Assembly (NCBI GenBank): GCA_963665235.2
Contig: CAXXLX010000001.1
Location: forward strand, 512,001 to 576,000
Source: Candidatus Poribacteria bacterium
Lineage (GTDB): Bacteria > Poribacteria > WGA-4E > WGA-3G
Reading direction: 5' to 3'
Length of the DNA: 64,000 nt
Position 1 is the stretch's first letter, and every line of letters starts with the position of its first letter. The position numbers were made by a program, and so were the translations under genes. Shown here in pieces: positions 19,903 through 35,528 of this stretch. Below the pieces are notes generated by a model. That model ran no database searches and had not been told where the DNA came from. It was given only the letters and a program-made list of their open reading frames with translations.

Positions 19903-20480
19903 ATTTTTATTATACCAAAATTCTTAAGTTTTTGTCAACAAAAAAAAATAAAAAACGGATGTGTCAACATTTTGTACTTATGTGTCAGTCTACCCTATAG
20001 CTCTCCACCGTTTGTAAAAAATGACGTTGTGATATTTGGGGCATGAGCTTAGTCGGGGCCTACAACGGTGGCATACATCCAAAAAACGGATACGTCATTT
20101 TGGGTTTCCACGCCTCCATTCCTATATCTATCCTTTGGGCCTCCAAAAAGTTTACACATCCCCAAAAAACGTTCCCCCTTCCCACCTATTCGTTTGACAA
20201 AAATTTTACATATCAAAAAAAAATTTGCTTTTTAACGTTTTTTAGGTTAAAATATATTTAACGTTTTTATTCTGTTTCATCTTTTTTATCGGACCTGTGC
20301 TATCGGTTCGCTTAAAAAGTTGAAAGAAAAAAACACGGTTCACGATACACAGACAGATTCCAACTGTCAACGTATCCTGCTTAGCCTGATAATAAGAGCG
20401 AGTTTCTGCTCGCGATTTTTGTGTCAAAATTTTCTAAACGTATACACTGCTTTATTTACAACGAATGAAAGGAAACAGTT

Positions 20481-20873
20481 ATGAGTAAAGATGAAACCGT
20501 CTCTCGGATAAAAAAACGGCGGCTTGAACTAAGCATGACACAGACCCAGTTAGCGAAAATCGCAAACTTAACACCTGCAGCCATCTCACAGTTCGAGTCT
20601 GGGACCCGCAAACCCTCTTTTAACACGCTCGCTGGCCTGTCCGAGGCCCTAAAGGTAACAACAGATTATCTTCTCGGTAAAGAGGAATTGCGATACGATG
20701 ACCTTCTTGCGGACCCGAAGGTTAGTCTCATGTTTAGAGGCATGATGGAATTCACAGAGCGCGATAAGGAAACCCTCTATGAGTTCTATAAATTCCTCAA
20801 GACACAAGCGGATGATGCTACATCAGATGCCACATCAGATGCTACATCAAGTGAAGGTTCATCGGGTCAATAA
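20481..20873 (+). CDS. XRE-family HTH transcriptional regulator
   Basis: IKKRRLELSMTQTQLAKIANLTPAAISQFESGTRKPS; AAAGGA RBS; stop codon lies inside the downstream element. Confidence 0.92.
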   Translation: MSKDETVSRIKKRRLELSMTQTQLAKIANLTPAAISQFESGTRKPSFNTLAGLSEALKVTTDYLLGKEELRYDDLLADPKVSLMFRGMMEFTERDKETLYEFYKFLKTQADDATSDATSDATSSEGSSGQ

Positions 20874-21140
20874 CCCCCAGCTAAAGCATGGGGGCTTGTC
20901 CCTGATGTCCGCCAAGGCTATCACAGGGACGAGGGTAACTTGTTGACTACCGTAATATATCGCAGATGCTGGACGTGGCAGTCCAAAGTATGGTTATCTA
21001 AAAAGGTGGCTTGTTTGTGGTAAAAGCAAGTTGCTGAAGGGTGCTCCCCAAGCCTTAACCCACTACGCTTATGTGATCGGGATGGGGCAATATATACCCG
21101 TGTAAGCGGAGAGCCCGAGAGGGTCCTTACCTGCTTTCTC
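20866..21140 (+). ncRNA. Putative omega-RNA/HEARO-like scaffold (3' end approximate)
   Basis: Three-way junction (closing stem plus hairpins CCCCCAG/TGGGGG and CTTGTCCCTG/CAGGGACGAG); loop sequence CCCC can pseudoknot with GGGG at ~21084. Confidence 0.65.
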
Positions 21141-21432
21141 AAAGAGACCGTGTCAGGTCGGCTCGGAGATGGTGACAGCACTGAAGAGCAGGCTGTTTGC
21201 CTGAATACTGAAAAGAAGCAGCACACTCGGAGAGGATCGCCCACGGGATTGTGGCGAAAAAACAACCCGAAGGAGGAAAACGAATGAACTTCGTTCATTT
21301 GTTTTCCCTCCCCCCCTTTGGGGTAATCTAAAACCGAAAAAGAGGCGGTGTTAGGAGGAAAGCTAATGAACTTCGTTCATTCGTTTTCCCTCCCCCGCAT
21401 AAATGCTAGGGGTCTCCACACCGAATATTTTG
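20866..21432 (+). mobile_element. Non-autonomous IS200/IS605-superfamily element with IscB-type omega-RNA (HEARO-like) and no ORF
   Basis: Starts GTCAATAACCCCCAGCTAAAGCATGGGGGCTTG; GTCAATAA pairs with TTGTTGAC (20940-20947); GGGTGCTCCCCAAGCC motif; ends TTCCCTCCCCCGCATAAATGCTAGGGGTCTCCAC..; followed by ATGA. Confidence 0.75.
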
Positions 21433-22356
21433 ATGATGCGTAACCGATTGCACTCTGCGAAGGATAGCCCCGCCGCCACGGCGTGGGCCCTCCTTCGCGA
21501 CCTCGATATACAAGAATTTCCAATCGAACCGAGGCACATCGCAAGTGCCCTCGGTATAGTCCTATGGGAACGTGAATTTGCGGGTAATTATGATGGATGC
21601 CTCATGCGCGTTGGAGATGCGTGGGGTATTCTCATCAACGCGCAAATTCAGTCCGAAGCCCGGCGGAACTTTACAATCGCCCATGAAATTGGGCATTACC
21701 AATTGGAACGCGATACGGAAACCCGCTCCTGTTCCCTAGATGAACGGTTAAACGCCGTAACTGCGGAACAGCGTGAGGACACTGAAGAGACATCCTCACA
21801 GAAGCGGGCGCATCTGCTTAGTGAACAGCGCGCCAATCAGTTTGCCGTTGAGTTGCTAATGCCAACCCCTATGTTTTTGGCGGACGCAGCAGGGCTGACA
21901 GAGGTCGGATTGCCAGCCATTACTGCCCTTGCTGAGCAGTACGGCACATCTTTGACGAGTACCGGCATTCATTACACCCGCCTCTCCGATTTGGTTTGCG
22001 CAATAGTGTTCTCGGAAGCTGGAATTATTCGTCACTTCGCCTACTCCGATGCATTTCGCGAGAATAGGAACTGCTATATCGCTATCGGCCAGACGCTTCA
22101 TCCTGAATCGCTCGCTTATCGGTTAGCGAATGAAACCCGTAAGGAGCCACTCATAGGACGGGTCCCGCTCAGCTGTTGGTGCCGACCTAATCAGCGTCGT
22201 AGGCATAGTAATAAGTATTCCGCCAAGGGGGCCGTAACCACAGAAATTGTAGAACATTCACTACGAATTCCGAGTACGAACCGCGTGATAACGTTTATCC
22301 ATTTTCCTATTGAGGGTGTGATGCCATCTCACAGTGTCATAGTACCCACCACCTAA
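21433..22356 (+). CDS. ImmA/IrrE-family metallo-endopeptidase
   Basis: RRNFTIAHEIGHY (HExxH), EQRANQFAVELLMP, YGTSLTS; start taken at ATGATG directly after the inserted element. Confidence 0.9.
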   Translation: MMRNRLHSAKDSPAATAWALLRDLDIQEFPIEPRHIASALGIVLWEREFAGNYDGCLMRVGDAWGILINAQIQSEARRNFTIAHEIGHYQLERDTETRSCSLDERLNAVTAEQREDTEETSSQKRAHLLSEQRANQFAVELLMPTPMFLADAAGLTEVGLPAITALAEQYGTSLTSTGIHYTRLSDLVCAIVFSEAGIIRHFAYSDAFRENRNCYIAIGQTLHPESLAYRLANETRKEPLIGRVPLSCWCRPNQRRRHSNKYSAKGAVTTEIVEHSLRIPSTNRVITFIHFPIEGVMPSHSVIVPTT

Positions 22357-22452
22357 AGGCGGCGGATTTGACAGGGGAGCGTTAAAATAGCGCGATGCGC
22401 TATCACAGGTAGGAGCGGATGGGATATGAAGAATGCCTGCTACCTTCACATG

Positions 22453-23496
22453 TCACGGGAGCAGACAGATTTTTCCGAAATTTTGACGCGCCTCCAAAAG
22501 ACGATGCGCTTCAGCTGCCTGCTGTAAAGGCAACGTGCGGTCAATGATAGGACACAACCGCTCCTGTTCTAAGAGGCGAACGAGGGTGCGAAGCTCGGTG
22601 ACGGTCCCCAATGCCGACCCCATGAGCGTCAGCTGTTTTTGATACATTTTCCGGATGTCGATTTGCCCTATGTTGCCTGTTGTAACACCGCACGAAACGA
22701 GTCTGCCGTTTTTCGCAAGGCTGCGGATGCTCTGTTCCCAGGTCGCAGCCCCGACATGTTCAAGAACGACATCAACCCCCCGCCCATCTGTTTCGGCTAG
22801 GATAACCTCTGAAAAATTTACGTCGGCATAGTTAATGGTAACGTCTGCGCCGAATTCCTTGGCGCGTGCCAATTTTGCATCTGTGCTAGCAGTCGCAAAG
22901 ATGCGCGCCCCGACTAGCTTGGCGATTTGTAAGCCGGCACTTCCGACACTTCCCCCAGCACCGAGTATCAGTACATCATCACCTGCGCGGAGCTGTGCGC
23001 GCGTGATAAGCATGTGCCATGCGGTGAGATAAGCGATAGGCAGGGCAGCAGCGTCAACAAACGACACGTTATCACCTATCCGAATTGCGTTTTTGGCTGG
23101 GGCCTTAACGAACGCAGCATACCCGCCATCTATCTGGAAGCCGAGCAGGTGTTGCGTCCCACACAGATTTTCGTACCCGTTGATGCAGTCGCTACAAACA
23201 CCACACGGGATACAAGGAGCGAGGAGTACCCGGTCCCCGATAGTGAGTTCCGAATGTGTGCCAGAAATTTCAGCGATTTCACCTGCAATGTCGGAACCGA
23301 GGATATGCGGTGCGCCTGTCTCTGATAATTTCTGTTTTATTTCAGGCCGGTCGCGCCGCGCGTGTATATCGAGATAGTTAACAGCGCACGTTCTAACTTT
23401 AACAAGGATTTCATCACGGTCAAGGGTCGGTTCAGCTACGTCTTGATACTGTAAAACGTCAATCCCGCCCTGTTCTGTAAACGCCAGTGCTTTCAT
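22453..23496 (-). CDS. Zinc-binding alcohol dehydrogenase / quinone oxidoreductase (MDR family)
   Basis: MKAL start; PHILGSDIAG, CGVCSDC..C, GAGGSVG, NFGKICL. Confidence 0.9.
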   Translation of the reverse strand: MKALAFTEQGGIDVLQYQDVAEPTLDRDEILVKVRTCAVNYLDIHARRDRPEIKQKLSETGAPHILGSDIAGEIAEISGTHSELTIGDRVLLAPCIPCGVCSDCINGYENLCGTQHLLGFQIDGGYAAFVKAPAKNAIRIGDNVSFVDAAALPIAYLTAWHMLITRAQLRAGDDVLILGAGGSVGSAGLQIAKLVGARIFATASTDAKLARAKEFGADVTINYADVNFSEVILAETDGRGVDVVLEHVGAATWEQSIRSLAKNGRLVSCGVTTGNIGQIDIRKMYQKQLTLMGSALGTVTELRTLVRLLEQERLCPIIDRTLPLQQAAEAHRLLEARQNFGKICLLP

Positions 23497-24025
23497 TACA
23501 AATCCAAATTGTAGGAGGTGTATGCCATACACTAACCTAAGTTGCCACATAGTAGCATAATCTTCCAGATTGTGCATATTTGTGGGCAAATTGGAAGTGA
23601 ACGGGACAAATATTAGCTCATTATCGGCATATTTTCAGTAAAGACGGTGTTTCCAGGTCTAAAAACTTATAAGTAGCAACTTGGGTTACACTATCAAACC
23701 GCTAAATATTTAACCATTATATCGAGATAGTTAACAGCGCACGTTCTAACTTTAACAAGGATTTCATCACGGTCAAGGGTCGGTTCAGCTACGTCTTGAT
23801 ACTGTAAAACGTCAATCCCGCCCTGTTCTGTAAACGCCAGTGCTTTCATTACAAATCCAAATTGTAGGAGGTGTATGCCATACACTAACCTAAGTTGCCA
23901 CATAGTAGCATAATCTTCCAGATTGTGCATATTTGTGGGCAAATTGGAAGTGAACGGGACAAATATTAGCTCATTATCGGCATATTTTCAGTAAAGACGG
24001 TGTTTCCAGGTCTAAAAACTTATAA

Positions 24026-24321
24026 TACCATTTTTATTAATTATTCTATCATTACCGGTTGTTAGAAATGAAACGGAGAACGGAAGACCCAAACTAAAAG
24101 TTTATGCTACAAGGAGGCACAAACTGGAAGTTTATGCTACAAGGAGGCACAAACTGGAAGTTTATGCTACAAGGAGGCACAAACTGGAAGTTTATGCTAC
24201 AAGGAGGCACAAACTGGAAGTTTATGCTACAAGGAGGCACAAACTGGAAGTTTATGCTACAAGGAGGCACAAACTGGAAGTTTATGCTACAAGAAAGAGA
24301 CATTTTCAATTAGAAATGGTA
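24026..24321. mobile_element. MITE, 296 bp, TIR TACCATTT...AAATGGTA, 3-bp TSD TAA
   Basis: Empty site AAAAACTTA-TAA-GTAGC is visible at ~23661-23677; filled site has TAA on both sides. Confidence 0.85.
24091..24293. repeat. 30-bp tandem repeat x7 (AAACTGGAAGTTTATGCTACAAGGAGGCAC)
   Basis: Direct reading; first and last units imperfect; unit contains the REP-like palindrome. Confidence 0.95.
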
Positions 24322-24361
24322 TAAGTAGCAACTTGGGTTACACTATCAAACCGCTAAATAT

Positions 24362-25207
24362 TTAACCATACGCGCCATGACTGAGAAATCCGAGCAGCCG
24401 TCGGAGGCGCGGGGATGCGTCCCGATATACAGATTCCGGCATCGTATAATTTACGAACGGATAATATTTATGCCCTACTAATCGGCGCGCATAAGTCACC
24501 TGTGTGATATATCGGGTGCGTTGACTTTGATTCGGACCGCCGCGGTGCCACACCTGATTGTTGAACATAATGACACTTCCCGCTTTGCCGAGGTTATATT
24601 GAATCTTTTCTTCCCATTGCGTTCCCTCCATCGGATTTGGCGGCGATGCACCGAAAAGATGTGACCCGGGAATAACCTCTGTCCCGCCATGTTCAATCTC
24701 CGTAACATCGGTGAGATAGTAGTTCGCAGTAAAGAGCAGTACAGGAAGTTTGACGTTCGTCGGCGGTGCACCTTCTGTGACAATATAGTGCGGGGAGTCG
24801 TCTTGATGCCAAGTCGTAATGCCGCCGCCGGGGCGCGTTTGAAACGAGTTGTTGTGAATGACGTGGCATTCTCCCACAATAAGTGCCTCGGCAAACGAGA
24901 CAATCGGTTCAATTTCAAACAAACGCAGGTTTGCCGGGCTGTGTTCAAACATCCGATGACAGAGATGCATAGTTGATGTGCGGTTTCCGCCGTTCAAACC
25001 GTTCGGATTATTCTCAAGTGACCATTCTAAATCCTGCCGAAGTTCATCGCAGTGAGCGGGGGTCAACACATTTTCAAGGAATAGGCAGCCATCCCGGTGG
25101 AACGTCTCCACCCATTCTTGGATTCTTTCAGGAGTGACGTTCTGTTCTGACAAGTAACGCGTTTCAGACACGAAGCACCTCTTTATTATGGAAACCCATA
25201 CAGACAA
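24362..25207 (-). CDS. Phytanoyl-CoA dioxygenase (PhyH) family Fe/2OG dioxygenase
   Basis: FHRDG, WHQD, GGTEVIPGSH, WHRGGPN..R; start may be further downstream. Confidence 0.9.
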   Translation of the reverse strand: MSVWVSIIKRCFVSETRYLSEQNVTPERIQEWVETFHRDGCLFLENVLTPAHCDELRQDLEWSLENNPNGLNGGNRTSTMHLCHRMFEHSPANLRLFEIEPIVSFAEALIVGECHVIHNNSFQTRPGGGITTWHQDDSPHYIVTEGAPPTNVKLPVLLFTANYYLTDVTEIEHGGTEVIPGSHLFGASPPNPMEGTQWEEKIQYNLGKAGSVIMFNNQVWHRGGPNQSQRTRYITQVTYARRLVGHKYYPFVNYTMPESVYRDASPRLRRLLGFLSHGAYG

Positions 25208-25250
25208 CGTTGAAACCCTGCCAATATAGGTTTCCTGCTTGTAGTATAAC

Positions 25251-25589
25251 CTATCCCATCGCTGCGGCGACGATAATGCCGAGCGAGATTAAGACACCGG
25301 CAACAGCGATACCTGCAGCGGTGTTGTTCTCTTCAGCTATCTGACGGTTCAGGTCATACGGGGTTGCCATATCGAAGACCTTATACCCAATCATTAAAAT
25401 GATTAAGCCAGCGATGCTAAAAACTATCACTAGAATGATATCCCTGGCAATCCCTTTCAAATCAAACAGTCCGTCTTCTTGTGGGGCGGCCTCATCTTGT
25501 GCCTGAACAGTCGTTACAAATAGCGTGAAGACACATAATGATACCATGACCAAACAAAATGTAGTTGATACGATTCTTTGCGCTTGCAT
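25251..25589 (-). CDS. DUF350-family membrane protein
   Basis: YKVFDMATPYDLNRQIAEENNTAAGIAVAG; GGAGG RBS. Confidence 0.8.
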   Translation of the reverse strand: MQAQRIVSTTFCLVMVSLCVFTLFVTTVQAQDEAAPQEDGLFDLKGIARDIILVIVFSIAGLIILMIGYKVFDMATPYDLNRQIAEENNTAAGIAVAGVLISLGIIVAAAMG

Positions 25590-25658
25590 AGTTCCTCCAA
25601 TAGATTAAGGTAGGAGCGAGCTCCCGCTCGCGATTAACCTGTGTGATACTCACAACGC

Positions 25659-26948
25659 CTAAAGGCGTGTGCTTCTTTGCCTCCTCAGGGGAGGCTTACT
25701 TGATTTGAGCCCCGAAAACGGTGACCACTTATCAAGTCGACGCAGGTGCGGATTAAACCGAACACCTGTGGGGGATACCACAGCCCCGACTACAGGGTTG
25801 AAAAGCCAGCCCTGATACTTTGTCAAAATGTTGCTTGCCCACACAACGTCTCTGTGTCCGTTCCAACCGCATTTAGAACAGTGGTAATTTCTGCCACTCG
25901 GCTTCTTGCGATTACGGCAACTCGGACAAGTTTGTGAGGTATAGGCTTCGTTTTCTGTCTCAACGTTGATGCCTACCGCTTTTGCTTTGTAGGTTATCAG
26001 GTGTTCGATTTTTGAGAAAGACCACTGGTGCAACTTCTGATTGGCGTTTTTGCTATAGTTAATAGATTGTCGTATGTGCTTAATGTCACCAATGACAATC
26101 GTTTCTATCCTTCGCTCTCGGCAGGAAGAAACAAATCGAGACGTGATTTTGTGACGCATATCACGTAATTGATTAGCAAGCGATGCAAGCGTTCTATCTT
26201 TAGCACGTTTTAGTTTTTTCCAACGCTTGCTATAACGTTTGCACCTTGATAGTTTTTGGTTGATTTTCGCCTTAAACTTTTCGCAATACCTTGCTTTACT
26301 TCGGATTTCGCGGCCGTTATAAATCTCGGAATTAAGTCCATCAAAAGCAACAATCGGATGTATTTCGCCCATGTCCACAGCAACCACAGGACCCGCTTTT
26401 ACTTTTGTCCGCTTCGGTTGCGTTACGTAGGTTGCGTGGAACTCGTATTGTTTCGTGGTTCGGTTATAGACAAGTGAGACTCCAGCGGGCACTTTCTTAT
26501 GGAACTTCTTATCAATCTTAATCCAGAGTGGGTCTCTGCCTTTGCCCAGAGAAAGCCGTAGCTTACCGTGCTTGTAGGTGATACCTGTAGCACGCCACGT
26601 GAAAGTATGGAACTTATGCTTTGGAGGCTTTGCTTTGGGATTAGAAGCTTTATTAGAAAAGAAAGAACGCCTTGCACCGCAATAGTCGTCTATGATTGCC
26701 TGAACGCTATGGGCATGGCAGGGATACCGCTTGAATTTGAGATATGCCTTAAGTCCACCGTCTGAAATCCAAAAGCCTTTTCGCCTGTGTGTTTTGAACG
26801 CAAGCGATACCGTTTTTGAATAGATACGACCGCCAAGCCGATTCATCTCGTCTAACTGCTCTGTAGGCTTGGCGGTTCCTATGATATAAGTGAGATAATC
26901 ATTTTTGGACCTAGACATTCTTTTCATCCTCAATATACTTTTTGACAA
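25659..26948 (-). CDS. tnpB: TnpB RNA-guided endonuclease
   Basis: VAVDMG, IVIGD, NEAYTSQTCPSC, CSKC, HRDVV. Confidence 0.93.
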   Translation of the reverse strand: MSKSILRMKRMSRSKNDYLTYIIGTAKPTEQLDEMNRLGGRIYSKTVSLAFKTHRRKGFWISDGGLKAYLKFKRYPCHAHSVQAIIDDYCGARRSFFSNKASNPKAKPPKHKFHTFTWRATGITYKHGKLRLSLGKGRDPLWIKIDKKFHKKVPAGVSLVYNRTTKQYEFHATYVTQPKRTKVKAGPVVAVDMGEIHPIVAFDGLNSEIYNGREIRSKARYCEKFKAKINQKLSRCKRYSKRWKKLKRAKDRTLASLANQLRDMRHKITSRFVSSCRERRIETIVIGDIKHIRQSINYSKNANQKLHQWSFSKIEHLITYKAKAVGINVETENEAYTSQTCPSCRNRKKPSGRNYHCSKCGWNGHRDVVWASNILTKYQGWLFNPVVGAVVSPTGVRFNPHLRRLDKWSPFSGLKSSKPPLRRQRSTRL

Positions 26949-27324
26949 CTTCTAAGGATACACACCCAACCGACGATATGAATTTGGAACGCGTCCACAG
27001 AGAGGGTAAACCGGATTTTAGGTGTGGAAATCCCTCACGCAAGACTTTAGAGGTGAAACCTTTTAGCATCCAAACTGTCCGAGTGACTGGCACTTTCGGA
27101 TTGGTTTCTATGATAAGATGCACAGGGTCTTCCATCACCTCACTGGCACACACCTTAAAATCTAAATCGGTTTGTTTGGAGCATATCAGATGATGCAACC
27201 GTTCTTGTATAGGTTCGGTTAAAACCTTGCGCCGATACTTCGGACACCAGATAACAGGATACTGACAACTATAGACAAGGTTCGTATCAGAATACCAACT
27301 CTTTTCTGGGTTCTTAATAAACAT
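26911..27324 (-). CDS. tnpA: IS200-type Y1 transposase (HUH motif altered)
   Basis: IWCPKYRRKVL, EDPVHL (canonical DHVH), LKGFTS, SLWTRS, VKKYI. Confidence 0.9.
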   Translation of the reverse strand: MFIKNPEKSWYSDTNLVYSCQYPVIWCPKYRRKVLTEPIQERLHHLICSKQTDLDFKVCASEVMEDPVHLIIETNPKVPVTRTVWMLKGFTSKVLREGFPHLKSGLPSLWTRSKFISSVGCVSLEVVKKYIEDEKNV

Positions 27325-27487
27325 TATACTATATCCTTTATCTGTTAGTTTCTCTAATATAGGATAACATATTTTTTAGATAATGTCAACTATTTTAGCT
27401 GTCACAGAGGCACGGGCGTTACGGGGTTGGACCCACAGCTAAAGCAGTGGGATTGTTAAGTGAGTCCCTTCAGTTTACGAATAGCAG

Positions 27488-30400
27488 TTATTTAAGCAGT
27501 TGAAACTGCATTTCTGCTGTGCTGTGTAGCTGTTTAATCAGGATAGCGTCTTTTTCGTGAAGGTACCGCCATCCGGATGTGACATCTTCTAGGGACTCAA
27601 CTTGCGGAATATCGTAAGGCGCGTCCTCTTTATCTGCATCATGCTCGGCACCCTCTGTTTGTGCGGGGTGAGTCGGGTGTGCACGAATGAGAGATGGGGC
27701 TTGTCCGTACCCGGTAATCAGTGTGTGACTGATTTCGTTTTCCGCGTAGTTCAGTGTCCACTTTAGTTCCCCTTTTCGGGAGGTGTTAACATCTTCCGGT
27801 TTCGCGCCGGAGCTGAGATGGATTGAGCCTGCAATTGCGGTTTTGATGCCCGGGTCAAGTCCGCGGAGCGTATAGACATTAACCATAATATCCTCAGGAT
27901 TGAGATGCGGTCCCTTGCCTTCGGTGCAGAATCCGTAGAATCCATCGGGGTATGTGCCTTTCAGTTCACCCTCTGTCCACTGCTGGTACATTGCACTTAT
28001 GGTGATGCCTTCAGCAATGTCGCGCCATTTTTCATCCCGTTTGTGCCGGTCCAGTTGTTGCAAATAGTAGGCATAGACCAGTCCGTTCCACTGCACTGGT
28101 ACCCCGAACCATGGGTGCGTATGAAACGTTGTGCCGAAAACGGGTATGGAGCCGAACAGCATTCCCGGTCGGTCCGGCAGATACCAATGATATAGGAAGG
28201 GTAGGCCCGCCTTAGCCCAGTATTCCGCGCGTTTCAGATACGATTTATTTCCGGTGATTTCGTGTGCCTCAATGTATGCCCCAATTGCATAGGCGGCAGC
28301 GAGAATATCCGGCTCATACAATGGGCATTCCCATGTTTGGGCACCCCGCGGCACCGAAAAACGGTTCATGAAGGCGAGTGCTTTTTTACCCGCTTCGAGT
28401 GAGACACTGTTCCCGGTGATGCGTGCATGTTTCAAGAGTTTTAGGGCATTCACAGCACACGTTCCGAGGACAACATCGCCCGGTGTTCCGAGGCTTTCTG
28501 TCCGTTCCGATGCTGGTTGAAACGCCCAGCTGCCATCCGCTGCTTGCGATGATAGCAAGGGTGCCACTTCGTCTTCATAGTGTGCCAATGCGGCCTCTAA
28601 GTGTCCGACATAGAATGGAAACTCTCCGCTGAGAATATGACATGAACCGCGGGCTACCAAAGCTGCCGGGCCGCCTTCGGCGACCGTTTTATCTGCTATC
28701 TCCATGACTCGTGCCTTAACAGGGTCAGATTTGGTGATGAGGTAATCGTACCAAAGTAAGGTTGCAAATCCCGGTTCGTTCTGTGAGGGCCAATCGGCAC
28801 AGTGTCGCGATTGCCGTGCCTCTGCATCCCAGGTTGTGTCCATGAACCCGTGCCGTGAGAGGAGTAGCTCCTCTTCATCGCTGCGCGGTGGGTTTAGCGG
28901 TGCTGGGGTGCCATACGCGGATGTCCAATGCGTTACTGCGTCTAAAATTGTGGTATTTCCATCTGCAATAATTTCACACGCCAAGGAGATAGGACGTTCC
29001 GGGGTGAATGTATAGGCTGTCTCAGCAACCCGTTCATTCTCCTTGACCCATTTCGGTACAGTGGGTAAGAAGAGTCCCATTAAATGATTTTTCTCTCGGT
29101 GATACGAATTCGGGGAGGCGAATACAGCGGAGACGTTGTGTTCCTCGCCATCCCAACTTTCCAGGGGATTCCAAGCGATACCGACAATTGATTTCTGCAA
29201 CTCAACCGCCATAACAGGAACAGTAATTTTATAGGGGTGCGGGACTAACCGGTTGTTGAGCGGAGGTGCTGCGTCTCTGGGATTTGAAGAGGGTTCTTCG
29301 TTTTCTAAGAATTCCAGCCCGGGAAACAGCGCAGCCGCTTTTTTATCGCGCATGCTTTTATGTCCTGCATAGATTTCTGTTCCTCGGAAAGCGAGCAACT
29401 CCCGGGGGCTATCCACCGTTAAGCGATATGCTGCTTTGATACGTCTAGCATCTTCAGTGAGCGTTAGCAGGAGTTGAAGCGTCCATGTTACGCCATCGGC
29501 ATCCTTCTGTTCATCGGATAGTCGGACAATAGCTTCGCCGAGGCTGTTCCCTGATAGGTAAACTTCACTTGGAACAAAAGTGAGATTCTGCTGTGTATCT
29601 GTCCGAGCTCCCTCCTGCTCGGGCTGTTCTTTTGATTGAGAAATGTAGGTTGCTTCAGCGATTGTTTTGGAGGTTGCTACTTGGTGATAGGTATTCCCTT
29701 TCGCTACGAAAACGGCATAATACTCAAAGCCTTCCGGTATGTCTATTTCTTGTGAGCGGAGGCTATCGCGCTGTGTGCCATTGTGAACCAAAACGATGCG
29801 GAGATGTTTATTGCCCATCACGACGTGTTCGTCCTGTTTGTAGGTATGGAGCTCCGGTATCACTTTTGTTTCAAGTTTCGGTAATACTGGTCGGATGTCA
29901 ACTGTACCCTTTACCTGTTTCTCACCGGTATGTTGCTGTGACTTCAGCGTAACACTGAATTCGGCACTATTTGAATGTGAAATCCCGTTTGCCTGCCAGA
30001 ATAACGTCGTTGTCTCACCGGGGGCGAGTGCATTCACGTTGTGTGTAGGTTTATCACGTTTGAGTTTCAGCTCGCTGATACTCAGACGTGTCTTGCTGTC
30101 CTTGGTGAGGGGCCCCGCCCCGGTATTTTTCAGAGTGCATTGTACTTCAAACGCCTCCCCTACACCGACAACAGCGGATGTTGCGCCGACGCTGACTATC
30201 TCTAATCGCGGTTGTGCTGCGTAAAGCGTTAAGTCGAGCGGCTCGTCTGCTAATTGCTTATAGATTTCACCTGCAATTTCGGAAGCAGGGGTGAAATCAG
30301 CACGATTGAACGTAAACACGCTGTGCTGATTCTCGTCGAATTCGGCAATAGCAATACCGCATTGCAATTCCGGTGTGGATACCGCTCTCCGCCTCCCTCT

Positions 30401-31543
30401 GCCCCTCGTACGGGTACGCTTCCTATCACGTCCTTCACCCCTTGTAGTTAGCTTCAGAAGTGTCGGTTTACCCCATAGTGCCCACGCGTAGCTGCTATTT
30501 CCTTCAACGTTACAGTGCGTGATGAAGGTGATGTTCACTGTTTTATCCGCGTAATCTGTTAACTCTATCCCGTTTTCCGCCCAACGGCATTCGGTTGACA
30601 CAGCGTCAAAATGCGGTTCGCCCGAAATTTCGATACAGAACTTAACCCCGCCCGGTGGTCGCTCCGCGTCATCAAACACGATGCCATCACGGAGCCCGAC
30701 ACTGAAATGGAGAAAAAGTGCTTCGTTCTCGGCAACGGAAGGGAGTGCTAATTCGTAGTTAATTCGGGCAGCATCGGTTGATGATGGGTGTCCAAACAGG
30801 GCAGGTTTTTTTACGCCGCCTGCTGAATCTGCCAAGCTTGCTGATACCTGCTCCGCCCCCTTATATGTGCTATCTTCAAACATCGCTACGAAATCGTACA
30901 CTTCCTCGCTTGTCCCCAGCTTATAAGACACCTCAGGTTCACTTGGGCCGGGCGTTTCTTTATCGTCAGATGCGGCTTCTGATTCTGCAGTCTCACCATC
31001 CGTAGACGCGCTTTGTAAGGGCTCAATCGATTCTAAAGGTTTAGATATCTGATCTTCTTCTGTAGGCGTGCTCTCCGGAGCATCAGATGTTACTTCAGCT
31101 GTCTCTGCCTCGGCCGCTTCAGGCGTTTCAGTAGGAACGTGCTCCTGCTCGCCATTTTCCACATCTGAACTCTGTTCTGTGGGGGCATCATCGCCCGCGA
31201 CTTCTTCAACAGGGTCAGCAGAATCAGGGTCAGGCGTTTCAGTAGGAACGTGCTCCTGCTCGCGACTTTCCATATCCGAATCTTGTTCTGCTGGGATATC
31301 ATCGCCCGCGACTTCCTCAACTGGCTCAGCAGAATCAGGATTAGGCGTTTCAGTAGGGACGTGCTCTTGCTCGCGACTTTCCATATCCGAATCTTGTTCT
31401 GCTGGGATATCATCGCCCGCGACTTCCTCAACTGGCTCAGCAGAATCAGAGTCAGGCGTTTCAGTGGAGGCGTGCTCCTGCTCGCGATTTTCCACTACGG
31501 GTTGTTCAAGTTCTTCCTCGTCATTATGTGTTTCTTCTTCCAT
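27488..31543 (-). CDS. Large hypothetical protein: acidic repeat N-terminus, beta-sandwich region, C-terminal alpha/alpha-barrel-like region
   Basis: 1363-aa ORF; probable start MEEETH with AGGA; SSQAADGSW, YLKRAEYWA suggest a glycosidase/prenyltransferase-like barrel (tentative). Confidence 0.7.
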   Translation of the reverse strand: MEEETHNDEEELEQPVVENREQEHASTETPDSDSAEPVEEVAGDDIPAEQDSDMESREQEHVPTETPNPDSAEPVEEVAGDDIPAEQDSDMESREQEHVPTETPDPDSADPVEEVAGDDAPTEQSSDVENGEQEHVPTETPEAAEAETAEVTSDAPESTPTEEDQISKPLESIEPLQSASTDGETAESEAASDDKETPGPSEPEVSYKLGTSEEVYDFVAMFEDSTYKGAEQVSASLADSAGGVKKPALFGHPSSTDAARINYELALPSVAENEALFLHFSVGLRDGIVFDDAERPPGGVKFCIEISGEPHFDAVSTECRWAENGIELTDYADKTVNITFITHCNVEGNSSYAWALWGKPTLLKLTTRGEGRDRKRTRTRGRGRRRAVSTPELQCGIAIAEFDENQHSVFTFNRADFTPASEIAGEIYKQLADEPLDLTLYAAQPRLEIVSVGATSAVVGVGEAFEVQCTLKNTGAGPLTKDSKTRLSISELKLKRDKPTHNVNALAPGETTTLFWQANGISHSNSAEFSVTLKSQQHTGEKQVKGTVDIRPVLPKLETKVIPELHTYKQDEHVVMGNKHLRIVLVHNGTQRDSLRSQEIDIPEGFEYYAVFVAKGNTYHQVATSKTIAEATYISQSKEQPEQEGARTDTQQNLTFVPSEVYLSGNSLGEAIVRLSDEQKDADGVTWTLQLLLTLTEDARRIKAAYRLTVDSPRELLAFRGTEIYAGHKSMRDKKAAALFPGLEFLENEEPSSNPRDAAPPLNNRLVPHPYKITVPVMAVELQKSIVGIAWNPLESWDGEEHNVSAVFASPNSYHREKNHLMGLFLPTVPKWVKENERVAETAYTFTPERPISLACEIIADGNTTILDAVTHWTSAYGTPAPLNPPRSDEEELLLSRHGFMDTTWDAEARQSRHCADWPSQNEPGFATLLWYDYLITKSDPVKARVMEIADKTVAEGGPAALVARGSCHILSGEFPFYVGHLEAALAHYEDEVAPLLSSQAADGSWAFQPASERTESLGTPGDVVLGTCAVNALKLLKHARITGNSVSLEAGKKALAFMNRFSVPRGAQTWECPLYEPDILAAAYAIGAYIEAHEITGNKSYLKRAEYWAKAGLPFLYHWYLPDRPGMLFGSIPVFGTTFHTHPWFGVPVQWNGLVYAYYLQQLDRHKRDEKWRDIAEGITISAMYQQWTEGELKGTYPDGFYGFCTEGKGPHLNPEDIMVNVYTLRGLDPGIKTAIAGSIHLSSGAKPEDVNTSRKGELKWTLNYAENEISHTLITGYGQAPSLIRAHPTHPAQTEGAEHDADKEDAPYDIPQVESLEDVTSGWRYLHEKDAILIKQLHSTAEMQFQLLK
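31125..31490. repeat. ~120-bp coding repeat x3
   Basis: REQEHVPTETPxPDSAEPVEEVAGDDIPAEQDSDME repeated. Confidence 0.85.
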
Positions 31544-31688
31544 TTTTCCTATGAGAAAATGTTGGAAAAACGTCAGCATTTCATATCTCCTCTGCTCAAA
31601 GTAGTAGGCATTTTTGAGTATTAGGGCAAGCAGCCTGCTCCTAAGGTTTCCGTAACAACGTTATAGAAGCGAGCTCGCGATTTACAAG

Positions 31689-32393
31689 CTATTGCTTTTC
31701 TTGCCACCGCTTTTTTTGCTGCTTCATTTCAGCGTTGAGAACAGGGTCAGATGATGGCGTTTGGTTTGCCGCGTCAATGAGCCAAACCCCGTCTTCGCTC
31801 TTCAGCACCGGTTTCCGTTGTTCAACAGGTAGCACGTCAAACGGTTTATGCGGCTCTATCTGATACCAATATGCGACAGAAGATGTCTCATTGCTGAGAT
31901 GGTTGCCGTGTCCGTGCTCAATTGTCACCCGAATCTCTTTCTCAAAACGGATGGGATTTTCAAGATGATAGACATACGAAGTTTGGTAACCGTTGGTATC
32001 GCTCTCGTGAATGGATGAACCGTTATGCGCAAACGCATTGCGTTGCATCCCCCACGCCTGATTGAGATAATCTTCTGAGCCGGTGCCGTGCAAATCCGGT
32101 GGCCACTTATAGCCATCTATCCAAATCATATCATCGCCTTCACCCCACCATGTGCCTTGGAAGTTGGTAACCGACAGATTACAACCGATATAGTGCCCTC
32201 TCCCTTCGGCAGACAGGATAAGATAGTTGTTATCCCATGCGAGTCGTTCCGCATTGATGATATCCGCTTCCGCCGTGTTGACTTTGATTTCGTGTCCCCA
32301 GCCATCACACGGATTTTCGCGATGAAATTGTGCATGAAAATGTGCCACATCCTCACCGTGGGGTGTCGGGTATAACTCGTAAACCATCAACAT
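31689..32393 (-). pseudogene. C-terminal part of a DUF2961 / GH172 glycoside hydrolase
   Basis: GRGHYIGC, WWGEGDD, GTGSEDY, VTIEHGH, SSVAYWYQ; the N-terminal part is not found before or after the adjacent IS. Confidence 0.75.
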
Positions 32394-32462
32394 AAGTCAT
32401 AGTTCAATTTTCCTATATATGCATCACACTGCGAATTCATGTTGTAGTGATACTCACAACGC

Positions 32463-33752
32463 CTAAAGGCGTGTGCTTCTTTGCCTCCTCAGGGGAGGCT
32501 TACTTGATTTGAGCCCCGAAAACGGGGACCACTTATCAAGTCGACGCAGGTGCGGATTAAACCGAACACCTGTGGGGGATACCACAGCCCCGACTACAGG
32601 GTTGAAAAGCCAGCCCTGATACTTTGTCAAAATGTTGCTTGCCCACACAACGTCTCTGTGTCCGTTCCAACCGCATTTAGAACAGTGGTAATTTCTGCCA
32701 CTCGGCTTCTTGCGATTACGGCAACTCGGACAAGTTTGTGAGGTATAGGCTTCGTTTTCTGTCTCAACGTTGATGCCTACCGCTTTTGCTTTGTAGGTTA
32801 TCAGGTGTTCGATTTTTGAGAAAGACCACTGGTGCAACTTCTGATTGGCGTTTTTGCTATAGTTAATAGATTGTCGTATGTGCTTAATGTCACCAATGAC
32901 AATCGTTTCTATCCTTCGCTCTCGGCAGGAAGAAACAAATCGAGACGTGATTTTGTGACGCATATCACGTAATTGATTAGCAAGCGATGCAAGCGTTCTA
33001 TCTTTAGCACGTTTTAGTTTTTTCCAACGCTTGCTATAACGTTTGCACCTTGATAGTTTTTGGTTGATTTTCGCCTTAAACTTTTCGCAATACCTTGCTT
33101 TACTTCGGATTTCGCGGCCGTTATAAATCTCGGAATTAAGTCCATCAAAAGCAACAATCGGATGTATTTCGCCCATGTCCACAGCAACCACAGTACCCGC
33201 TTTTACTTTTGTCCGCTTCGGTTGCGTTACGTAGGTTGCGTGGAACTCGTATTGTTTCGTGGTTCGGTTATAGACAAGTGAGACTTCAGCGGGCACTTTC
33301 TTATGGAACTTCTTATCAATCTTAATCCAGAGTGGGTCTCTGCCTTTGCCCAGAGAAAGCCGTAGCTTACCGTGCTTGTAGGTGATACCTGTAGCACGCC
33401 ACGTGAAAGTATGGAACTTATGCTTTGGAGGCTTTGCTTTGGGATTAGAAGCTTTATTAGAAAAGAAAGAACGCCTTGCACCGCAATAGTCGTCTATGAT
33501 TGCCTGAACGCTATGGGCATGGCAGGGATACCGCTTGAATTTGAGATATGCCTTAAGTCCACCGTCTGAAATCCAAAAGCCTTTTCGCCTGTGTGTTTTG
33601 AACGCAAGCGATACCGTTTTTGAATAGATACGACCGCCAAGCCGATTCATCTCGTCTAACTGCTCTGTAGGCTTGGCGGTTCCTATGATATAAGTGAGAT
33701 AATCATTTTTGGACCTAGACATTCTTTTCATCCTCAATATACTTTTTGACAA
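32463..33752 (-). CDS. tnpB: TnpB RNA-guided endonuclease
   Basis: Same motifs as copy 1. Confidence 0.93.
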   Translation of the reverse strand: MSKSILRMKRMSRSKNDYLTYIIGTAKPTEQLDEMNRLGGRIYSKTVSLAFKTHRRKGFWISDGGLKAYLKFKRYPCHAHSVQAIIDDYCGARRSFFSNKASNPKAKPPKHKFHTFTWRATGITYKHGKLRLSLGKGRDPLWIKIDKKFHKKVPAEVSLVYNRTTKQYEFHATYVTQPKRTKVKAGTVVAVDMGEIHPIVAFDGLNSEIYNGREIRSKARYCEKFKAKINQKLSRCKRYSKRWKKLKRAKDRTLASLANQLRDMRHKITSRFVSSCRERRIETIVIGDIKHIRQSINYSKNANQKLHQWSFSKIEHLITYKAKAVGINVETENEAYTSQTCPSCRNRKKPSGRNYHCSKCGWNGHRDVVWASNILTKYQGWLFNPVVGAVVSPTGVRFNPHLRRLDKWSPFSGLKSSKPPLRRQRSTRL

Positions 33753-34128
33753 CTTCTAAGGATACACACCCAACCGACGATATGAATTTGGAACGCGTCC
33801 ACAGAGAGGGTAAACCGGATTTTAGGTGTGGAAATCCCTCACGCAAGACTTTAGAGGTGAAACCTTTTAGCATCCAAACTGTCCGAGTGACTGGCACTTT
33901 CGGATTGGTTTCTATGATAAGATGCACAGGGTCTTCCATCACCTCACTGGCACACACCTTAAAATCTAAATCGGTTTGTTTGGAGCATATCAGCTGATGC
34001 AACCGTTCTTGTATAGGTTCGGTTAAAACCTTGCGCCGATACTTCGGACACCAGATAACAGGATACTGACAACTATAGACAAGGTTCGTATCAGAATACC
34101 AACTCTTTTCTGGGTTCTTAATAAACAT
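33715..34128 (-). CDS. tnpA: IS200-type Y1 transposase (HUH motif altered)
   Basis: Same motifs as copy 1. Confidence 0.9.
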   Translation of the reverse strand: MFIKNPEKSWYSDTNLVYSCQYPVIWCPKYRRKVLTEPIQERLHQLICSKQTDLDFKVCASEVMEDPVHLIIETNPKVPVTRTVWMLKGFTSKVLREGFPHLKSGLPSLWTRSKFISSVGCVSLEVVKKYIEDEKNV

Positions 34129-34346
34129 TATACTATATCCTTTATCTGTTAGTTTCTCTAATATAGGATAACATATTTTTTAGATAATGTCAACTATTTT
34201 AGCTGTCACAGAGGCACGGGCGTTACGGGGTTGGACCCACAGCTAAAGCAGTGGGATTGTTAAGTGAGTCCCTTCACTATCAATTATAACACATCCATAC
34301 AAAAAAGCAACAGAAAAATCTATTTCTCAGCCGCTGTCCCGATTAT

Positions 34347-34844
34347 CAAGTCTTCCGCTACAAAACCCCCGTGCTTTAGCTGGGGGATGTAGTAGCGGCG
34401 CATGAGCTAAAATTTTAATTTGACTTTTGCATTAAAATGTGGTATAATATATATATCATCAGTGGTTCGGATTACCACCTTCAACGCCACCAATGTTGAA
34501 GTTCCGAACCTCAACCTATGGTAGGGTTGTGTGCTGATGTTCTGGCGATACCCAGTCAATATCCACATTTTTGTGCAATGCTTTCGGTATCCAAAAGACG
34601 GGTCATGCTGCATTGGATACCAAAGCACTGATTCACAAGCATAAAGAAGGTGCGAAGCACGAGGGCAGGGCATTGTCCTTTGAGTTAGGGGCAGTAAGAC
34701 TTGGAACAGCCCAAGCATCTCCGTTGAGGATGTCCTCGGTGGGACCTCGGACGTTCACACGTCTGAAAACCACAATCCAATAGCTAACGCGTAGCGGAAC
34801 TTTTTAAAAGAATCTCCCTTGCTTTAGCTGGGAGAGTATGTCAA
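34347..34844 (+). mobile_element. Non-autonomous IS605-type element (PATE-like) with promoter and TnpB-type right-end RNA, no intact ORF
   Basis: TTAT|CAAG.. left end with hairpin CCCCCGTGCTTTAGCTGGGGG; right end GAATCTCCCTTGCTTTAGCTGGGAGAGTATGTCAA; internal GGCAGGGCATTGTCC..GTAAGAC..CCGTTGA typical of tnpB 3' ends. Confidence 0.78.
34420..34448 (+). promoter_or_regulatory. Near-consensus sigma70 promoter
   Basis: TTGACT-17 nt-TATAAT with extended TG. Confidence 0.75.
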
Positions 34845-35066
34845 GTACTCAAACTTGACTATCAACCCTGTAATGAGACGCAGTGTTTATTGCCACAGGT
34901 GTTAGATATTCCGTTGAAATTGCGGTAAATTGATGGGTTTCGCTTTTTTGGCGATTAGCGATTGGCGATTAGCAAATAGCAAGAGGAAGAGGGGTTTGAC
35001 GCGCAGCAGAGATATGCTTAGCATCACAACCTTCTTGCTAATTGCCAAACTGCCAAAGAAGGAGGT

Positions 35067-35425
35067 ATGATTATGTTTTCACGGCTTCAAGCTCATCGGG
35101 ACAGACGGAAAAGACGATTCGATGAAGCTAGAACCGAAGGAAAAGCCGAAGGTAAAACCGAGGCTTACCGAACGCGAGTTTGAAAAAAGTTTTGACCTAG
35201 AGCGTTCTCTGGTAGTTTTAGCAAAAAACAGCACAAACTAGGAAGTATGTGCTACAATTATGCTGCTTTTTTCTCGGTGAAACAGGTTTAGAGCAAACGG
35301 ATATTTATTATCAAGCTCACGTTTACCGAGAAATCGCTGAATGGAATAGCAGACGGCTCAACGCACTGGCACGAAATGAACCATTCACCGAACTGTTCCC
35401 TGAACCGCCTGACACTACTCATTAG
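35067..35425 (+). pseudogene. Small EGKAEG-motif protein (Rpn C-terminal-like) interrupted by a MITE
   Basis: AAGGAGG RBS; removing 35171-35328 gives MFSRLQAHRDRRKRRFDEARTEGKAEGKTEAYREIAEWNSRRLNALARNEPFTELFPEPPDTTH*. Confidence 0.75.
35171..35323 (+). mobile_element. MITE, 153 bp, TIR AACGYGAGYTTGA, 5-bp TSD TACCG
   Basis: AACGCGAGTTTGA...TCAAGCTCACGTT flanked by TACCG twice; inverted homologue at 49541-49694. Confidence 0.88.
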
Positions 35426-35528
35426 CGATTGGCGATTGGCGATTGGCAAGAAATATAAGAGGGTTCTTTCTCTTGCTAATTGCCAACTGCCAACTGCAAC
35501 CTTAACAATATTGTAGGCTAAGTTTATC

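Follow-up and report, generated by a model that had tools for sequence, protein, structure and literature searches.

Hairpin-bearing elements of the window

The stretch of DNA analysed here, referred to as the window, comprises 64 kb (C1:512001-576000) of a 5.31-Mb assembly of a Candidatus Poribacteria bacterium, which consists of 4 contigs (G000) and has a completeness rating of 92.6%. Three kinds of element lie in this window: two full copies of an insertion sequence (IS) that carries both tnpA and tnpB, a gene-less mini-element with the ends of TnpB-only elements, and a gene-less IsrB-type element that includes an omega-RNA-like module (Table 1). The bacterium is uncultured, and its closest named homologues are annotated as Candidatus Poribacteria; together with the hairpin-pattern matches in other genomes, they point away from a cyanobacterium, which heptamer-like repeats had suggested at first. 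What these elements have in common is a subterminal hairpin that contains the 11-mer TGCTTTAGCTG. This 11-mer matches the window five times compared to an expected 0.03 matches, and none of 100 shuffled sequences contained five or more.

Each hairpin has a G/C-rich lower stem of 5 bp; above it, one base or two are unpaired or mismatched, and two GC pairs then close a TTTA loop. With a plain T.T mismatch, the hairpin at the left end of the full IS copies measures 20 nt, whereas those of the other elements are 21 nt long and contain one extra unpaired base. At the right ends of both full IS copies, a different stem (ACGCC/GGCGT) presents the same TTTA loop, and in these copies the 11-mer is found at the left ends only. 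In all three kinds of element, subterminal imperfect palindromes are present at both ends on the same top strand (plus/plus in the mini-element, minus/minus in IS copies 1 and 2 and in the IsrB-type element), and there are no terminal inverted repeats. The hairpin is thus very probably the subterminal imperfect palindrome that is bound on single-stranded DNA by the Y1 (HUH) TnpA transposase of IS608-like IS200/IS605 elements. An earlier, sequence-only reading of this DNA had proposed a TnpA-type hairpin shared by three element classes. All the hairpins it quoted are present, with positions that differ by at most one base, and their nature as Y1-TnpA-type palindromes is borne out at the ends of the IS, the mini-element with TnpB-type ends and the omega-RNA element. 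The differing stem at the IS right ends and the distinction between 20-nt and 21-nt forms had escaped that reading.

Table 1. Elements of the window and their parts, with window positions.
Feature	Position	Strand	Details
TGCTTTAGCTG (11-mer)	20878-20888 (-), 27436-27446 (-), 34240-34250 (-), 34372-34382 (+), 34820-34830 (+)		each within a hairpin quoted by the sequence-only reading
Gene-less IsrB-type element	20866..21432	minus = transposase top strand	567 bp; between XRE-type helix-turn-helix (HTH) gene and M78 peptidase gene (Pfam)
Right-end hairpin, IsrB-type	20874..20894	minus	CCCCCATGCTTTAGCTGGGGG; CCCCC-AT-GCTTTAGC-T-GGGGG; guide CAAG 20895-20898 (minus); cleavage after TGAC, 8 nt 3' of foot; sequence reading and repeat search
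Left-end hairpin, IsrB-type	21392..21412	minus	CCCC-TA-GCAT-TT-ATGC-G-GGGG; variant without 11-mer; guide GAGA directly 5'
Target tetranucleotide TCAT (ATGA on plus)	21433..21436	minus	GAGA predicts TCAT
Omega-RNA-like module (HEARO-like 5' part)	20866..21110	plus	TnpA hairpin within its first stem
IS copy 1 (left end, tnpA, tnpB, right end)	25643..27468	minus	1826 bp; two copies aligned with flanks, end bases read
Left-end hairpin, IS copy 1	27432..27451	minus	CCCACTGCTTTAGCTGTGGG; CCCAC-T-GCTTTAGC-T-GTGGG; upstream of tnpA; guide CAAT 5' of hairpin; target TGAA 27469-27472 (TTCA on plus)
Right-end hairpin, IS copy 1	25651..25671	minus	CAC-ACGCC-TTTA-GGCGT-(T)-GTG; without 11-mer; guide GAAG 25672-25675; element end TCAC at 25643
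tnpA, copy 1	26911..27324	minus	137 aa; Pfam Y1_Tnp (PF01797), E 8.8e-32, 110 bits (cut-off 23)
tnpB, copy 1	25659..26948	minus	429 aa; Pfam OrfB_IS605 and Cas12f1-like_TNB, both above cut-off
IS copy 2	32447..34272	minus	1826 bp; tnpB 32463-33752, tnpA 33715-34128
Left-end hairpin, IS copy 2	34236-34255	minus	CCCACTGCTTTAGCTGTGGG; upstream of tnpA; target TGAA at 34273-34276 (TTCA on plus)
Gene-less mini-element with TnpB-only-element ends	34347..34844	plus	498 bp; target TTAT 34343-34346
Left-end hairpin, mini-element	34366-34386	plus	CCCCCGTGCTTTAGCTGGGGG; guide AAAA; 19 nt from cleavage site; sequence reading and repeat search
Right-end hairpin, mini-element	34814-34834	plus	CTCCCTTGCTTTAGCTGGGAG; guide GAAT; 10 nt from foot, starting AG, ending ...TCAA; sequence reading and repeat search
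Promoter-like site (TTGACT, 17 nt, TATAAT; TG before second hexamer)	34420..34448	plus	sigma-70-like, 11/12 matches, extended -10; consensus match only

The two IS copies differ at 5 of 1826 positions (99.7% identity), have unlike flanks and are both preceded by TGAA. Their TnpA aligned to the structures of IS608 TnpA (2a6m/2vhg) with an E-value of 1.6e-31 over 126 residues, and the catalytic tyrosine is retained, where it aligns with the VVKQY-IE helix of IS608 TnpA. The RuvC D/E/D residues of the window TnpB are present in a genome-wide MAFFT alignment (columns AVDMG, IETI and HRDV), but the position of the Glu is uncertain, as a phmmer alignment to a solved chain sets it elsewhere. The idea that this TnpB had lost the RuvC-II Glu, to which the phmmer alignment opposes a Gly, was dropped because MAFFT puts the Glu of I-E-T-I in the column. 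In the available part of the source, a Gly-bearing rearranged TnpB clade is described as probably active (PMC10691335). The tnpB stop codon of IS copy 1 lies within the right-end hairpin.

Logan contigs of four runs were compared with positions 25600-27520 of the window. One contig of run X2 joins 25642 to 27469, thereby skipping exactly the 1826 bases of IS copy 1, with a shorter side of 41 letters. This joint is an empty or excised site of IS copy 1 in the sampled population. In addition, loose contig ends at 25642/25643 in several runs represent further insertion contexts of related elements. Other joints among these contigs skip 141, 396, 76 and 130 bases.

The gene-less IsrB-type element is one of five such copies at five loci that share exact termini; the flanks diverge outside GTCAA... 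and ...TTTTG, and ATGA follows the element in 5/5. Its last base is 20866, and the correspondence of guide CAAG with TGAC holds in 12 copies. The element itself has no nuclease gene. Full-length IsrB-type relatives that were fetched measure 1261-1410 bp, and full IsrB elements have CCCCG-T-TGCTTTAGCA-CGGGG at the place of the variant left-end hairpin. In the one full copy that was scanned, the 359-aa nuclease matched Pfam RRXRR only, with no HNH family at E <= 0.01. Its best solved match was IsrB (8dmb; residues 3-299, E 1.4e-25), whereas IscB chains matched residues 4-119 only. The name IscB-type, which the sequence-only reading had given to this element, should therefore be IsrB-type.

The omega-RNA-like module matched the Rfam family HEARO (RF02033) with 29.4 bits and an E-value of 6.5e-4, below the gathering score of 83. 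The best match in the whole genome reached 35 bits. By the Rfam threshold, the module is not a member of HEARO. No Rfam family was found in the window at gathering thresholds, and the other matches at E <= 10 (microRNA, small nucleolar RNA and long non-coding RNA families) were discarded as chance. The omega-RNA region aligns with 10 IsrB-linked copies, with compensatory changes in 14 of the 42 predicted pairs. To judge from these features, the module may work like the 5' part of a HEARO-type omega-RNA while standing outside Rfam-threshold membership. Its guide would be the upstream flank at about 20846-20865, which is the 3' end of the HTH gene, and the target tetranucleotide TCAT/ATGA would also be the 3' target-adjacent motif (TAM) of the IsrB-type guide RNA.

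The HTH gene was matched in 19 of the 30 relatives searched. In one of these, G011, it runs ...GGTTCCGAGGATGCCGAGTAACCGATT... uninterrupted into the right flank, and this sequence aligns with the window from 21432 on. The left flank in the window ends ...GGTTCATCGG at 20865, where a short tandem repeat causes poor alignment and the junction was read by eye. G011 thus appears to hold the orthologous locus without the IsrB-type insert. In the window, the HTH gene (20481-20873) and the gene for the M78 (IrrE/ImmA-like) peptidase (21433-22356) are separated by the 567-bp element, which provides the last two codons and the stop codon of the HTH gene; in its absence, the HTH stop codon would overlap with the start codon (ATG) of the peptidase gene (ATGATGCGTAA). 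A 44-nt palindromic unit occurs twice inside the element (21271-21314 and 21353-21396) and is missing from four gene-less relatives. Similar sequence adjoins the left end of two full IsrB elements (C1:3021481 and C1:1659639).

The mini-element contains a single open reading frame (ORF) of at least 60 aa (103 aa), which has no Pfam match. A tblastn search with 25 TnpB proteins of the genome revealed no significant TnpB coding remnant in it (best E 0.03-0.04). It shares its initial ~113 nt and final ~43 nt with the ends of 1.4-kb TnpB-only elements, and its 3' 150 nt show patchy similarity to the 3' tails of these elements. Over its first 122 nt, the mini-element shares 90% identity with the left end of the IS at C1:3153209, the sole IS with a HUH-intact TnpA. 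The genome contains 10 mini-type elements; eight other copies could be aligned over about 500 nt, with 86-97% likeness. The promoter-like site points toward the right end and the flank, and lies in a region common to the left ends of tnpA-bearing ISs. The mini-element has ends of the IS200/IS605 type, encodes neither a transposase nor a nuclease and occurs in several copies at separate sites; in this it resembles the palindrome-associated transposable elements (PATEs), and so does the gene-less IsrB-type family with its 5 copies.

Element ends and guide tetranucleotides across the genome

The sequence-only reading had suggested a scan of the genome for the hairpin, together with a classification of the cargo. 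Such a scan identified tnpA+tnpB, TnpB-only, IsrB-type and gene-less cargo. The 11-mer TGCTTTAGCTG has 70 matches in the genome compared to about 2.5 expected (our own arithmetic for 11 bases). By their flanks, 67 of these sort into six end types. One type consists of 27 left ends (class A), to which 21 right ends correspond as partners. IsrB-type ends account for 10 matches, ends that terminate in TCTATCAC for 5, the left ends of the window IS for 2 and further right ends for another 2; the remaining 3 matches are unrelated. The class-A left ends precede tnpA+tnpB in 2 cases and tnpB alone in 11 cases, while 14 have no gene of their own. Five of the IsrB-type ends are accompanied by an RRXRR ORF that reads inward on the other strand and five are not. 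Wherever the 11-mer is paired with genes, it is located at element ends with fixed orientation and distance. Pairing of left with right ends resulted in 10 mini-elements and 11 TnpB-only elements.

When the core was relaxed, GCTTTAGC turned out to be the invariant part, with 297 matches on both strands, 120 of which have a perfect 5-bp lower stem. This set takes in the left ends of IsrB elements as well as a second IsrB/IscB-like family that ends in ATCTTTAC. For comparison, the genome has 13 Y1_Tnp matches versus 44 TnpB-TNB and 23 RRXRR matches. HEARO matches were observed at 11 places (29-35 bits), at least 7 of them just upstream of RRXRR ORFs.

The cleavage sites of these ends were examined against what is known for IS608. 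According to the available parts of two reports (PMC3201880, PMC5934647), the palindromes that IS608 TnpA binds lie subterminally on the top strand. On the left, it cleaves after TTAC at a distance of 19 nt 5' of the foot; on the right, it cleaves after TCAA, 10 nt 3' of the foot. The same parts state that these sites are not recognised by the protein itself, a task that falls to the tetranucleotide 5' of each foot (GL AAAG, GR GAAT). They name the pairs C-3:G-35 and T-4:A-34, leave A-2 unpaired, and describe triples formed by the A and the G that come 3' of the right foot. The pairing that we applied was C1:G2, C2:G1 and C4:G4 with an unpaired A at C3, where C4:G4 was inferred from the four published tetranucleotides. 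The rule was tested on clusters of at least two copies, for which the boundary was set independently by flank divergence.

The boundary tetranucleotide equalled the guide prediction in 14 of 14 multi-copy end clusters with 7 distinct guides, the stem being fixed at 5 bp as in IS608, a choice made after the output had been seen. The fitting pairs are AAAA>TTAT, AAAG>TTAC, CAAG>TGAC, GAAT>TCAA, GAGA>TCAT, GAAG>TCAC (at a right and a left end) and CAAT>TGAA. In addition, AAAT>TTAA was observed in a family of six copies whose stem is imperfect, and GAAC>TCAG was seen in one single copy in the genome and on one Poribacteria contig. TTAT precedes the 27 class-A left ends. For the window IS, TGAA is expected from the guide CAAT, and it likewise precedes related left ends at other places in the genome. 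It follows from the rule that the targets in the window are TGAA for the IS, TTAT for the mini-element and the TnpB-only elements, and TCAT (ATGA on the plus strand) for the IsrB-type element. Insertion takes place 3' of the specific tetranucleotide without target-site duplication, as seen in the TGAA, TTAT and ATGA contexts and in the empty-site contig and the ortholog. By the logic described for G. stearothermophilus, the target tetranucleotides would also be the TAMs of the guide RNAs of these elements. In some copies (C1:19462, C1:2437638 and C1:667499), a 3-nt AAA/TTT insertion at the hairpin foot parts the guide from the foot and the rule is broken. Such copies may be immobile.

The hairpin pattern was also scanned in other genomes, with one genome per species, and the figures cover the matches listed only. 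Among these, the pattern occurs in Poribacteria, Acidobacteriota, Bacteroidota, Cyanobacteria, Methylobacter, a Helicobacter and others. The raw count (at least 119 stretches) is uninformative, because for 16 specified bases in 596 Gb we calculate that ~280 matches would be expected by chance. The guide/cleavage rule, in contrast, held at IS608-like distances for 43 of 134 among the matches listed compared to 23.9 +/- 4.3 when guides were dealt randomly, and 0 of 500 such deals reached 43. The same hairpin is written into the Rfam HEARO consensus. It is therefore a generic feature of the IS608-like group that is tied to diverse transposases.

An altogether different view would be that the hairpin is a generic repeated extragenic palindrome, or a terminator-like element, that merely lies near IS genes. 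In support of this view, a detectable IS gene was present within 2.5 kb at only 15 of 139 pattern matches listed from other genomes, and the number of chance matches deprives raw counts of much meaning. For the present genome, however, this view is already contradicted by the sorting of nearly all 11-mer matches into end types and by the consistent outcome of the guide rule. The excess of rule-abiding matches in other genomes also argues against it, as does the finding that no terminator-like T-run was present 3' of the hairpins. We consider this explanation hardly credible.

Transposases and probable mobilisation in trans

The genome encodes seven IS605-type TnpA ORFs, which form two clades with identities of 86-93% and 75-99% within and 40-47% between the clades. 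Clade 1 (C1:3153209, C1:32727 and C2:339792) is associated with the extra-base hairpin at the left and right IS ends. Clade 2 includes the two window copies, C1:733800 and C2:795353, and has the ACGCC/GGCGT right end, while the sequence of the left-end stem varies; one left end has another stem (CCCAAGTC/GACTTGGG). Both window TnpAs read D-P-V-H at the position of D-H-I-H in IS608, with a Pro for the first metal-binding His, and thus lack the intact HUH motif. Of the seven ORFs, H-V-H is retained only in C1:3153209, while four have P-V-H and two have P-V-L. Accordingly, clade 2 is without a HUH-intact member in this assembly. The hairpins of the mini- and IsrB-type elements share the extra-base form of clade 1.

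These findings can be combined as follows. TnpA would read the hairpin only, and the specificity for cleavage and target would be carried in cis by each element, as the guide tetranucleotide 5' of the hairpin foot would pair with the one at the cleavage site. If a TnpA accepts the hairpin, it could then, in principle, excise and reinsert any element with this hairpin at both ends, and each family would keep its own target. One hairpin could be present on many unrelated cargoes because the protein would read the hairpin alone. The RNAs of gene-less elements would presumably be made and loaded by nucleases encoded elsewhere. The gene-less families have multiple copies, which stand at different loci and end at exactly the same bases. 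Their movement must therefore depend on a transposase acting in trans, and a trans-mobilised network is plausible. Which TnpA moves which element we infer from sequence only.

The sequence-only reading had described a network of autonomous, defective and RNA-only elements that share a transposase. Its idea of trans movement is upheld by the gene-less families, and 'defective' is an apt word for the window ISs with TnpAs that lack the first HUH histidine. The single shared transposase is not supported. A generic hairpin tied to distinct transposases had been named as the finding that would speak against it, and to some extent this is what was observed: two TnpA clades of such low mutual identity use the hairpin, which is also part of the HEARO consensus and occurs in other phyla. 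A hairpin this general marks the elements as substrates of an enzyme family, but is no sign of one common enzyme.

It is also possible, although we do not favour this explanation, that there are two or more separate mobilisation groups and that the 11-mer is an inherited family sequence instead of a sign of a shared enzyme. In that case, the clade-2 TnpA would serve the T.T hairpins and the ACGCC/GGCGT right end, the clade-1 TnpA would serve the extra-base hairpins of mini-, TnpB-only and IsrB-type elements, and the full ISs of the window and their neighbours would not cross-mobilise. This is supported by the distance between the clades, by the ACGCC-TTTA-GGCGT right end that three clade-2 ISs share (one having a left end with the CCCAAGTC/GACTTGGG stem), by the extra-base form at both ends of the three clade-1 ISs, and by the hairpin's presence in many phyla with diverse transposases among the matches listed. 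On the other hand, a clade-2 TnpA must already accept two quite different stems, and stem sequence thus seems to be read loosely. Moreover, clade 2 lacks a HUH-intact TnpA and yet has nearly identical IS copies and an empty site, for which help in trans is the simplest explanation. Lastly, the available part of the G. stearothermophilus study discussed below reports that one TnpA excised several families.

Several observations weigh against a trans-mobilised network built on this hairpin. Both divergent TnpA clades use the hairpin, the window-IS hairpin has no extra unpaired base, and its right-end partner is built on another stem, which leaves room for two specificity groups. The sole HUH-intact IS605-type TnpA is one copy in an assembly that is 92.6% complete. 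The empty-site joint was found on one contig of one run at 90% likeness and is flagged 'between: not known', and the HEARO score of the omega-RNA-like module is far under the gathering score. With regard to the guide rule, automatic stem extension misreads the GAAT class as AGAA, owing to a possible T-A pair at the foot. The rule is also broken by 3 to 4 ends present as single copies (C1:19476, C1:469816, C1:667499 and C1:2436355), in some cases because of a 3-nt insertion between guide and foot.

Alternatively, the window elements could be immobile relics and their hairpins fossils of past activity. The first HUH histidine is missing in 6 of the 7 IS605-type TnpA ORFs and the second also in two of them, the gene-less IsrB-type copies are only about 82% alike, and in some copies the guide has been displaced by the 3-nt insertion. 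All this would be expected of relics. However, the two IS copies are close to identical and occupy different TGAA sites, an exact empty-site contig exists, and the loose ends in four runs show further insertion contexts. The eight other mini-element copies have likewise remained similar, and one IS has both an intact TnpA and an intact TnpB. Complete immobility is therefore unlikely, and we retain mobilisation in trans as the preferred interpretation.

The His-to-Pro change itself deserves attention. The codons at this position are CCY for Pro and CAY for His, the window codon being CCT at 27127-27129. Among the 120 best database homologues, 115 have His, 2 have Gln and 3 have Pro, and the three with Pro are all from this genome. 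A tree of 127 rows requires at least two His-to-Pro changes; the four clade-2 copies lie in an unresolved fork with two His-bearing outsiders, where one or more events are indistinguishable. The ratio of non-synonymous to synonymous substitution rates (dN/dS) between Pro-bearing copies was 0.13-0.22 at dS values of 0.2-0.8, and 0.51 for the closest P-V-L pair. In relatives, the HUH motif was disrupted at 5 of the 27 non-self loci that gave an alignment, compared to 2 of 117 in the broad homologue list. These five (L153 and L170 in G003, L171 in G012, L174 in G026 and L164 in G001) read PLH, ALH, HVP and HVD, without stop codons, and YLH, with two stops. Another substitution, Y-P for the conserved Y-H in the N-terminal strand, is present in the window copies and in C2:795353.

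With respect to the reliability of the Pro codon at 27127-27129, contigs of 3 runs agree with it, although these belong to one study, possibly of the source sample, and are not independent of it. A contig of run X5, from another study, differs at 27136 and 27138 but not at 27127-27129, its cover of the codon being inferred from contig-end distances. An artefact of long reads or methylation in a CATG-type context was considered and rejected, as the genome shows no depletion of CATG (14,847 sites), CAC-GTG is retained in the intact copy, and the runs agree.

Both window copies carry the Pro and differ in their TGAA site, and one of them has an empty-site allele, which implies that an element with a Pro-bearing TnpA has moved. 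Either this movement was helped in trans or the variant is not dead. From its motif, the Pro-bearing TnpA is predicted to be inactive. The explanation may be decay together with mobilisation in trans, a crippled subunit that is under selection, or an active site that departs from the canonical one. That the change is something other than decay is a tentative suggestion about which we have considerable doubt. In this scenario, crippled subunits that still bind the hairpin would be kept and would poison or tune the obligate TnpA dimer, or the active site would use an unusual metal ligand. The idea of a selected subunit is raised because the change arose at least twice, similar disruptions are present in relatives, and the differences are mostly synonymous.

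Neighbouring sequences and relation to known systems

Several repeats and large genes surround the elements. Similar hairpins of the form GCGAG...CTCGC, followed by GATT(T/A), are located at 25616-25637, just outside the right end of IS copy 1, and at 20398-20419, upstream of the HTH gene, where the hairpin has a terminator-like score. At 24055-24324, about 7-9 head-to-tail copies of a 30-nt unit lie beside an exact 353-bp tandem duplication (23365-23664 = 23718-24017) that includes the 5' end of an alcohol-dehydrogenase-like gene, and the reverse complement of the same unit is tandemly repeated beside a degenerate mini-element copy (C2:317330-317450). Downstream of the mini-element, runs of the heptamer GCGATTG/GCGATTA (34954-34984 and 35421-35451) and inverted partners (CAATTGC/CAACTGC; near 35040-35056 and 35478-35496) are present, the heptamer runs bracketing two ~100-nt stretches. 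Three very long ORFs are encoded by the minus strand around the elements (12457-19902, 2481 aa; 27488-31579, 1363 aa; 35529-45137, 3202 aa), and the 1363-aa ORF holds 111-nt tandem repeats (31095-31494).

IS608 of H. pylori is one system that the window IS closely resembles: its TnpA is the best solved match of the window TnpA, tnpA precedes tnpB, and the hairpins are on one strand. The mini-element agrees with IS608 in the 19 nt on the left, the 10 nt on the right, the guide GR GAAT, the cleavage site CR TCAA and the A/G 3' of the foot. In contrast to the TTAC of IS608, the targets here are TGAA, TTAT and TCAT. Further differences are the Pro in the window TnpA and a spacing of 8 nt at the right end of the window IS. 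The hairpin sequence of IS608 is presumably very similar to that of the window.

The ISGst1-5 elements of G. stearothermophilus (Meers 2023, bioRxiv 10.1101/2023.03.14.532601) provide a second comparison. In the available part of that report, one TnpA excises several IscB/TnpB families, gene-less PATE-like relatives carry omega-RNAs, and the TAM is the transposon target, recognised via DNA guides. In both organisms, nuclease-encoding families and gene-less elements share similar ends, and tnpA genes are few. As far as that part of the report goes, the present genome differs by an IsrB-type nuclease in which no HNH was detected, a larger number of end classes (at least 7 guide/target pairs), two TnpA clades and a mostly disrupted HUH motif. 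Excision was shown there, whereas here it is predicted from sequence; our own observations comprise the anatomy of the elements, their exact boundaries, the covariation of guide and cleavage site, the dispersal of gene-less families in multiple copies and one empty site with an exact joint.

In K. racemifer, nuclease-only transposons with Cas9-like (ISC) or TnpB (IS605B) proteins share terminal hairpins, according to the available part of the work of Kapitonov, Makarova and Koonin (2016, PMC4810608). There, the two genes lie on opposite strands relative to the ends, trans-mobilisation by Y1 transposases was predicted, and PATEs and repetitive extragenic palindromes (REPs) were described as gene-less relatives. 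Likewise, the hairpins in the present genome are common to TnpB and IsrB-type elements, with the nuclease ORF on the opposite strand in the latter. To the extent covered by that part of the paper, organism and target sites differ, and the gene-less omega-RNA copies and the covariation table come from the genome studied here. The HEARO consensus (RF02033) opens with GUCAa, contains a CCCC...GGGG hairpin with a UAAA loop and then a closing uuGAC, features that recur here. The scores of the matches in this genome remain far from 83 because the middle of the model is unmatched; these HEARO-like RNAs are a divergent subfamily linked to IsrB-like proteins.

Among the papers listed by a literature search, none mentions Poribacteria together with these elements. 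The window is a new, unusually rich instance, in another lineage, of an arrangement known from 2016 and 2023, and the picture drawn in those studies is unchanged by our results. What they supply is a natural covariation table that backs the IS608 pairing rule outside Helicobacter, together with TAM predictions for several TnpB/IsrB nucleases (TGAA, TTAT, TCAT/ATGA, TTAC, TGAC, TCAC and TTAA). With its 120 perfect-stem hairpins, the genome is also a large natural example of modular design, in which one hairpin would be read by a protein while the choice of target is encoded in DNA. Novelty might come from a single point, namely that otherwise conserved TnpA genes have repeatedly lost a metal-binding histidine, alongside evidence of movement of an element of this kind. 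If the change is indeed selected, the Pro-bearing TnpA would restrain, from within, a network that numbers more than 100 elements, where few active TnpA molecules, together with the guide-RNA nucleases, would keep the elements in place.

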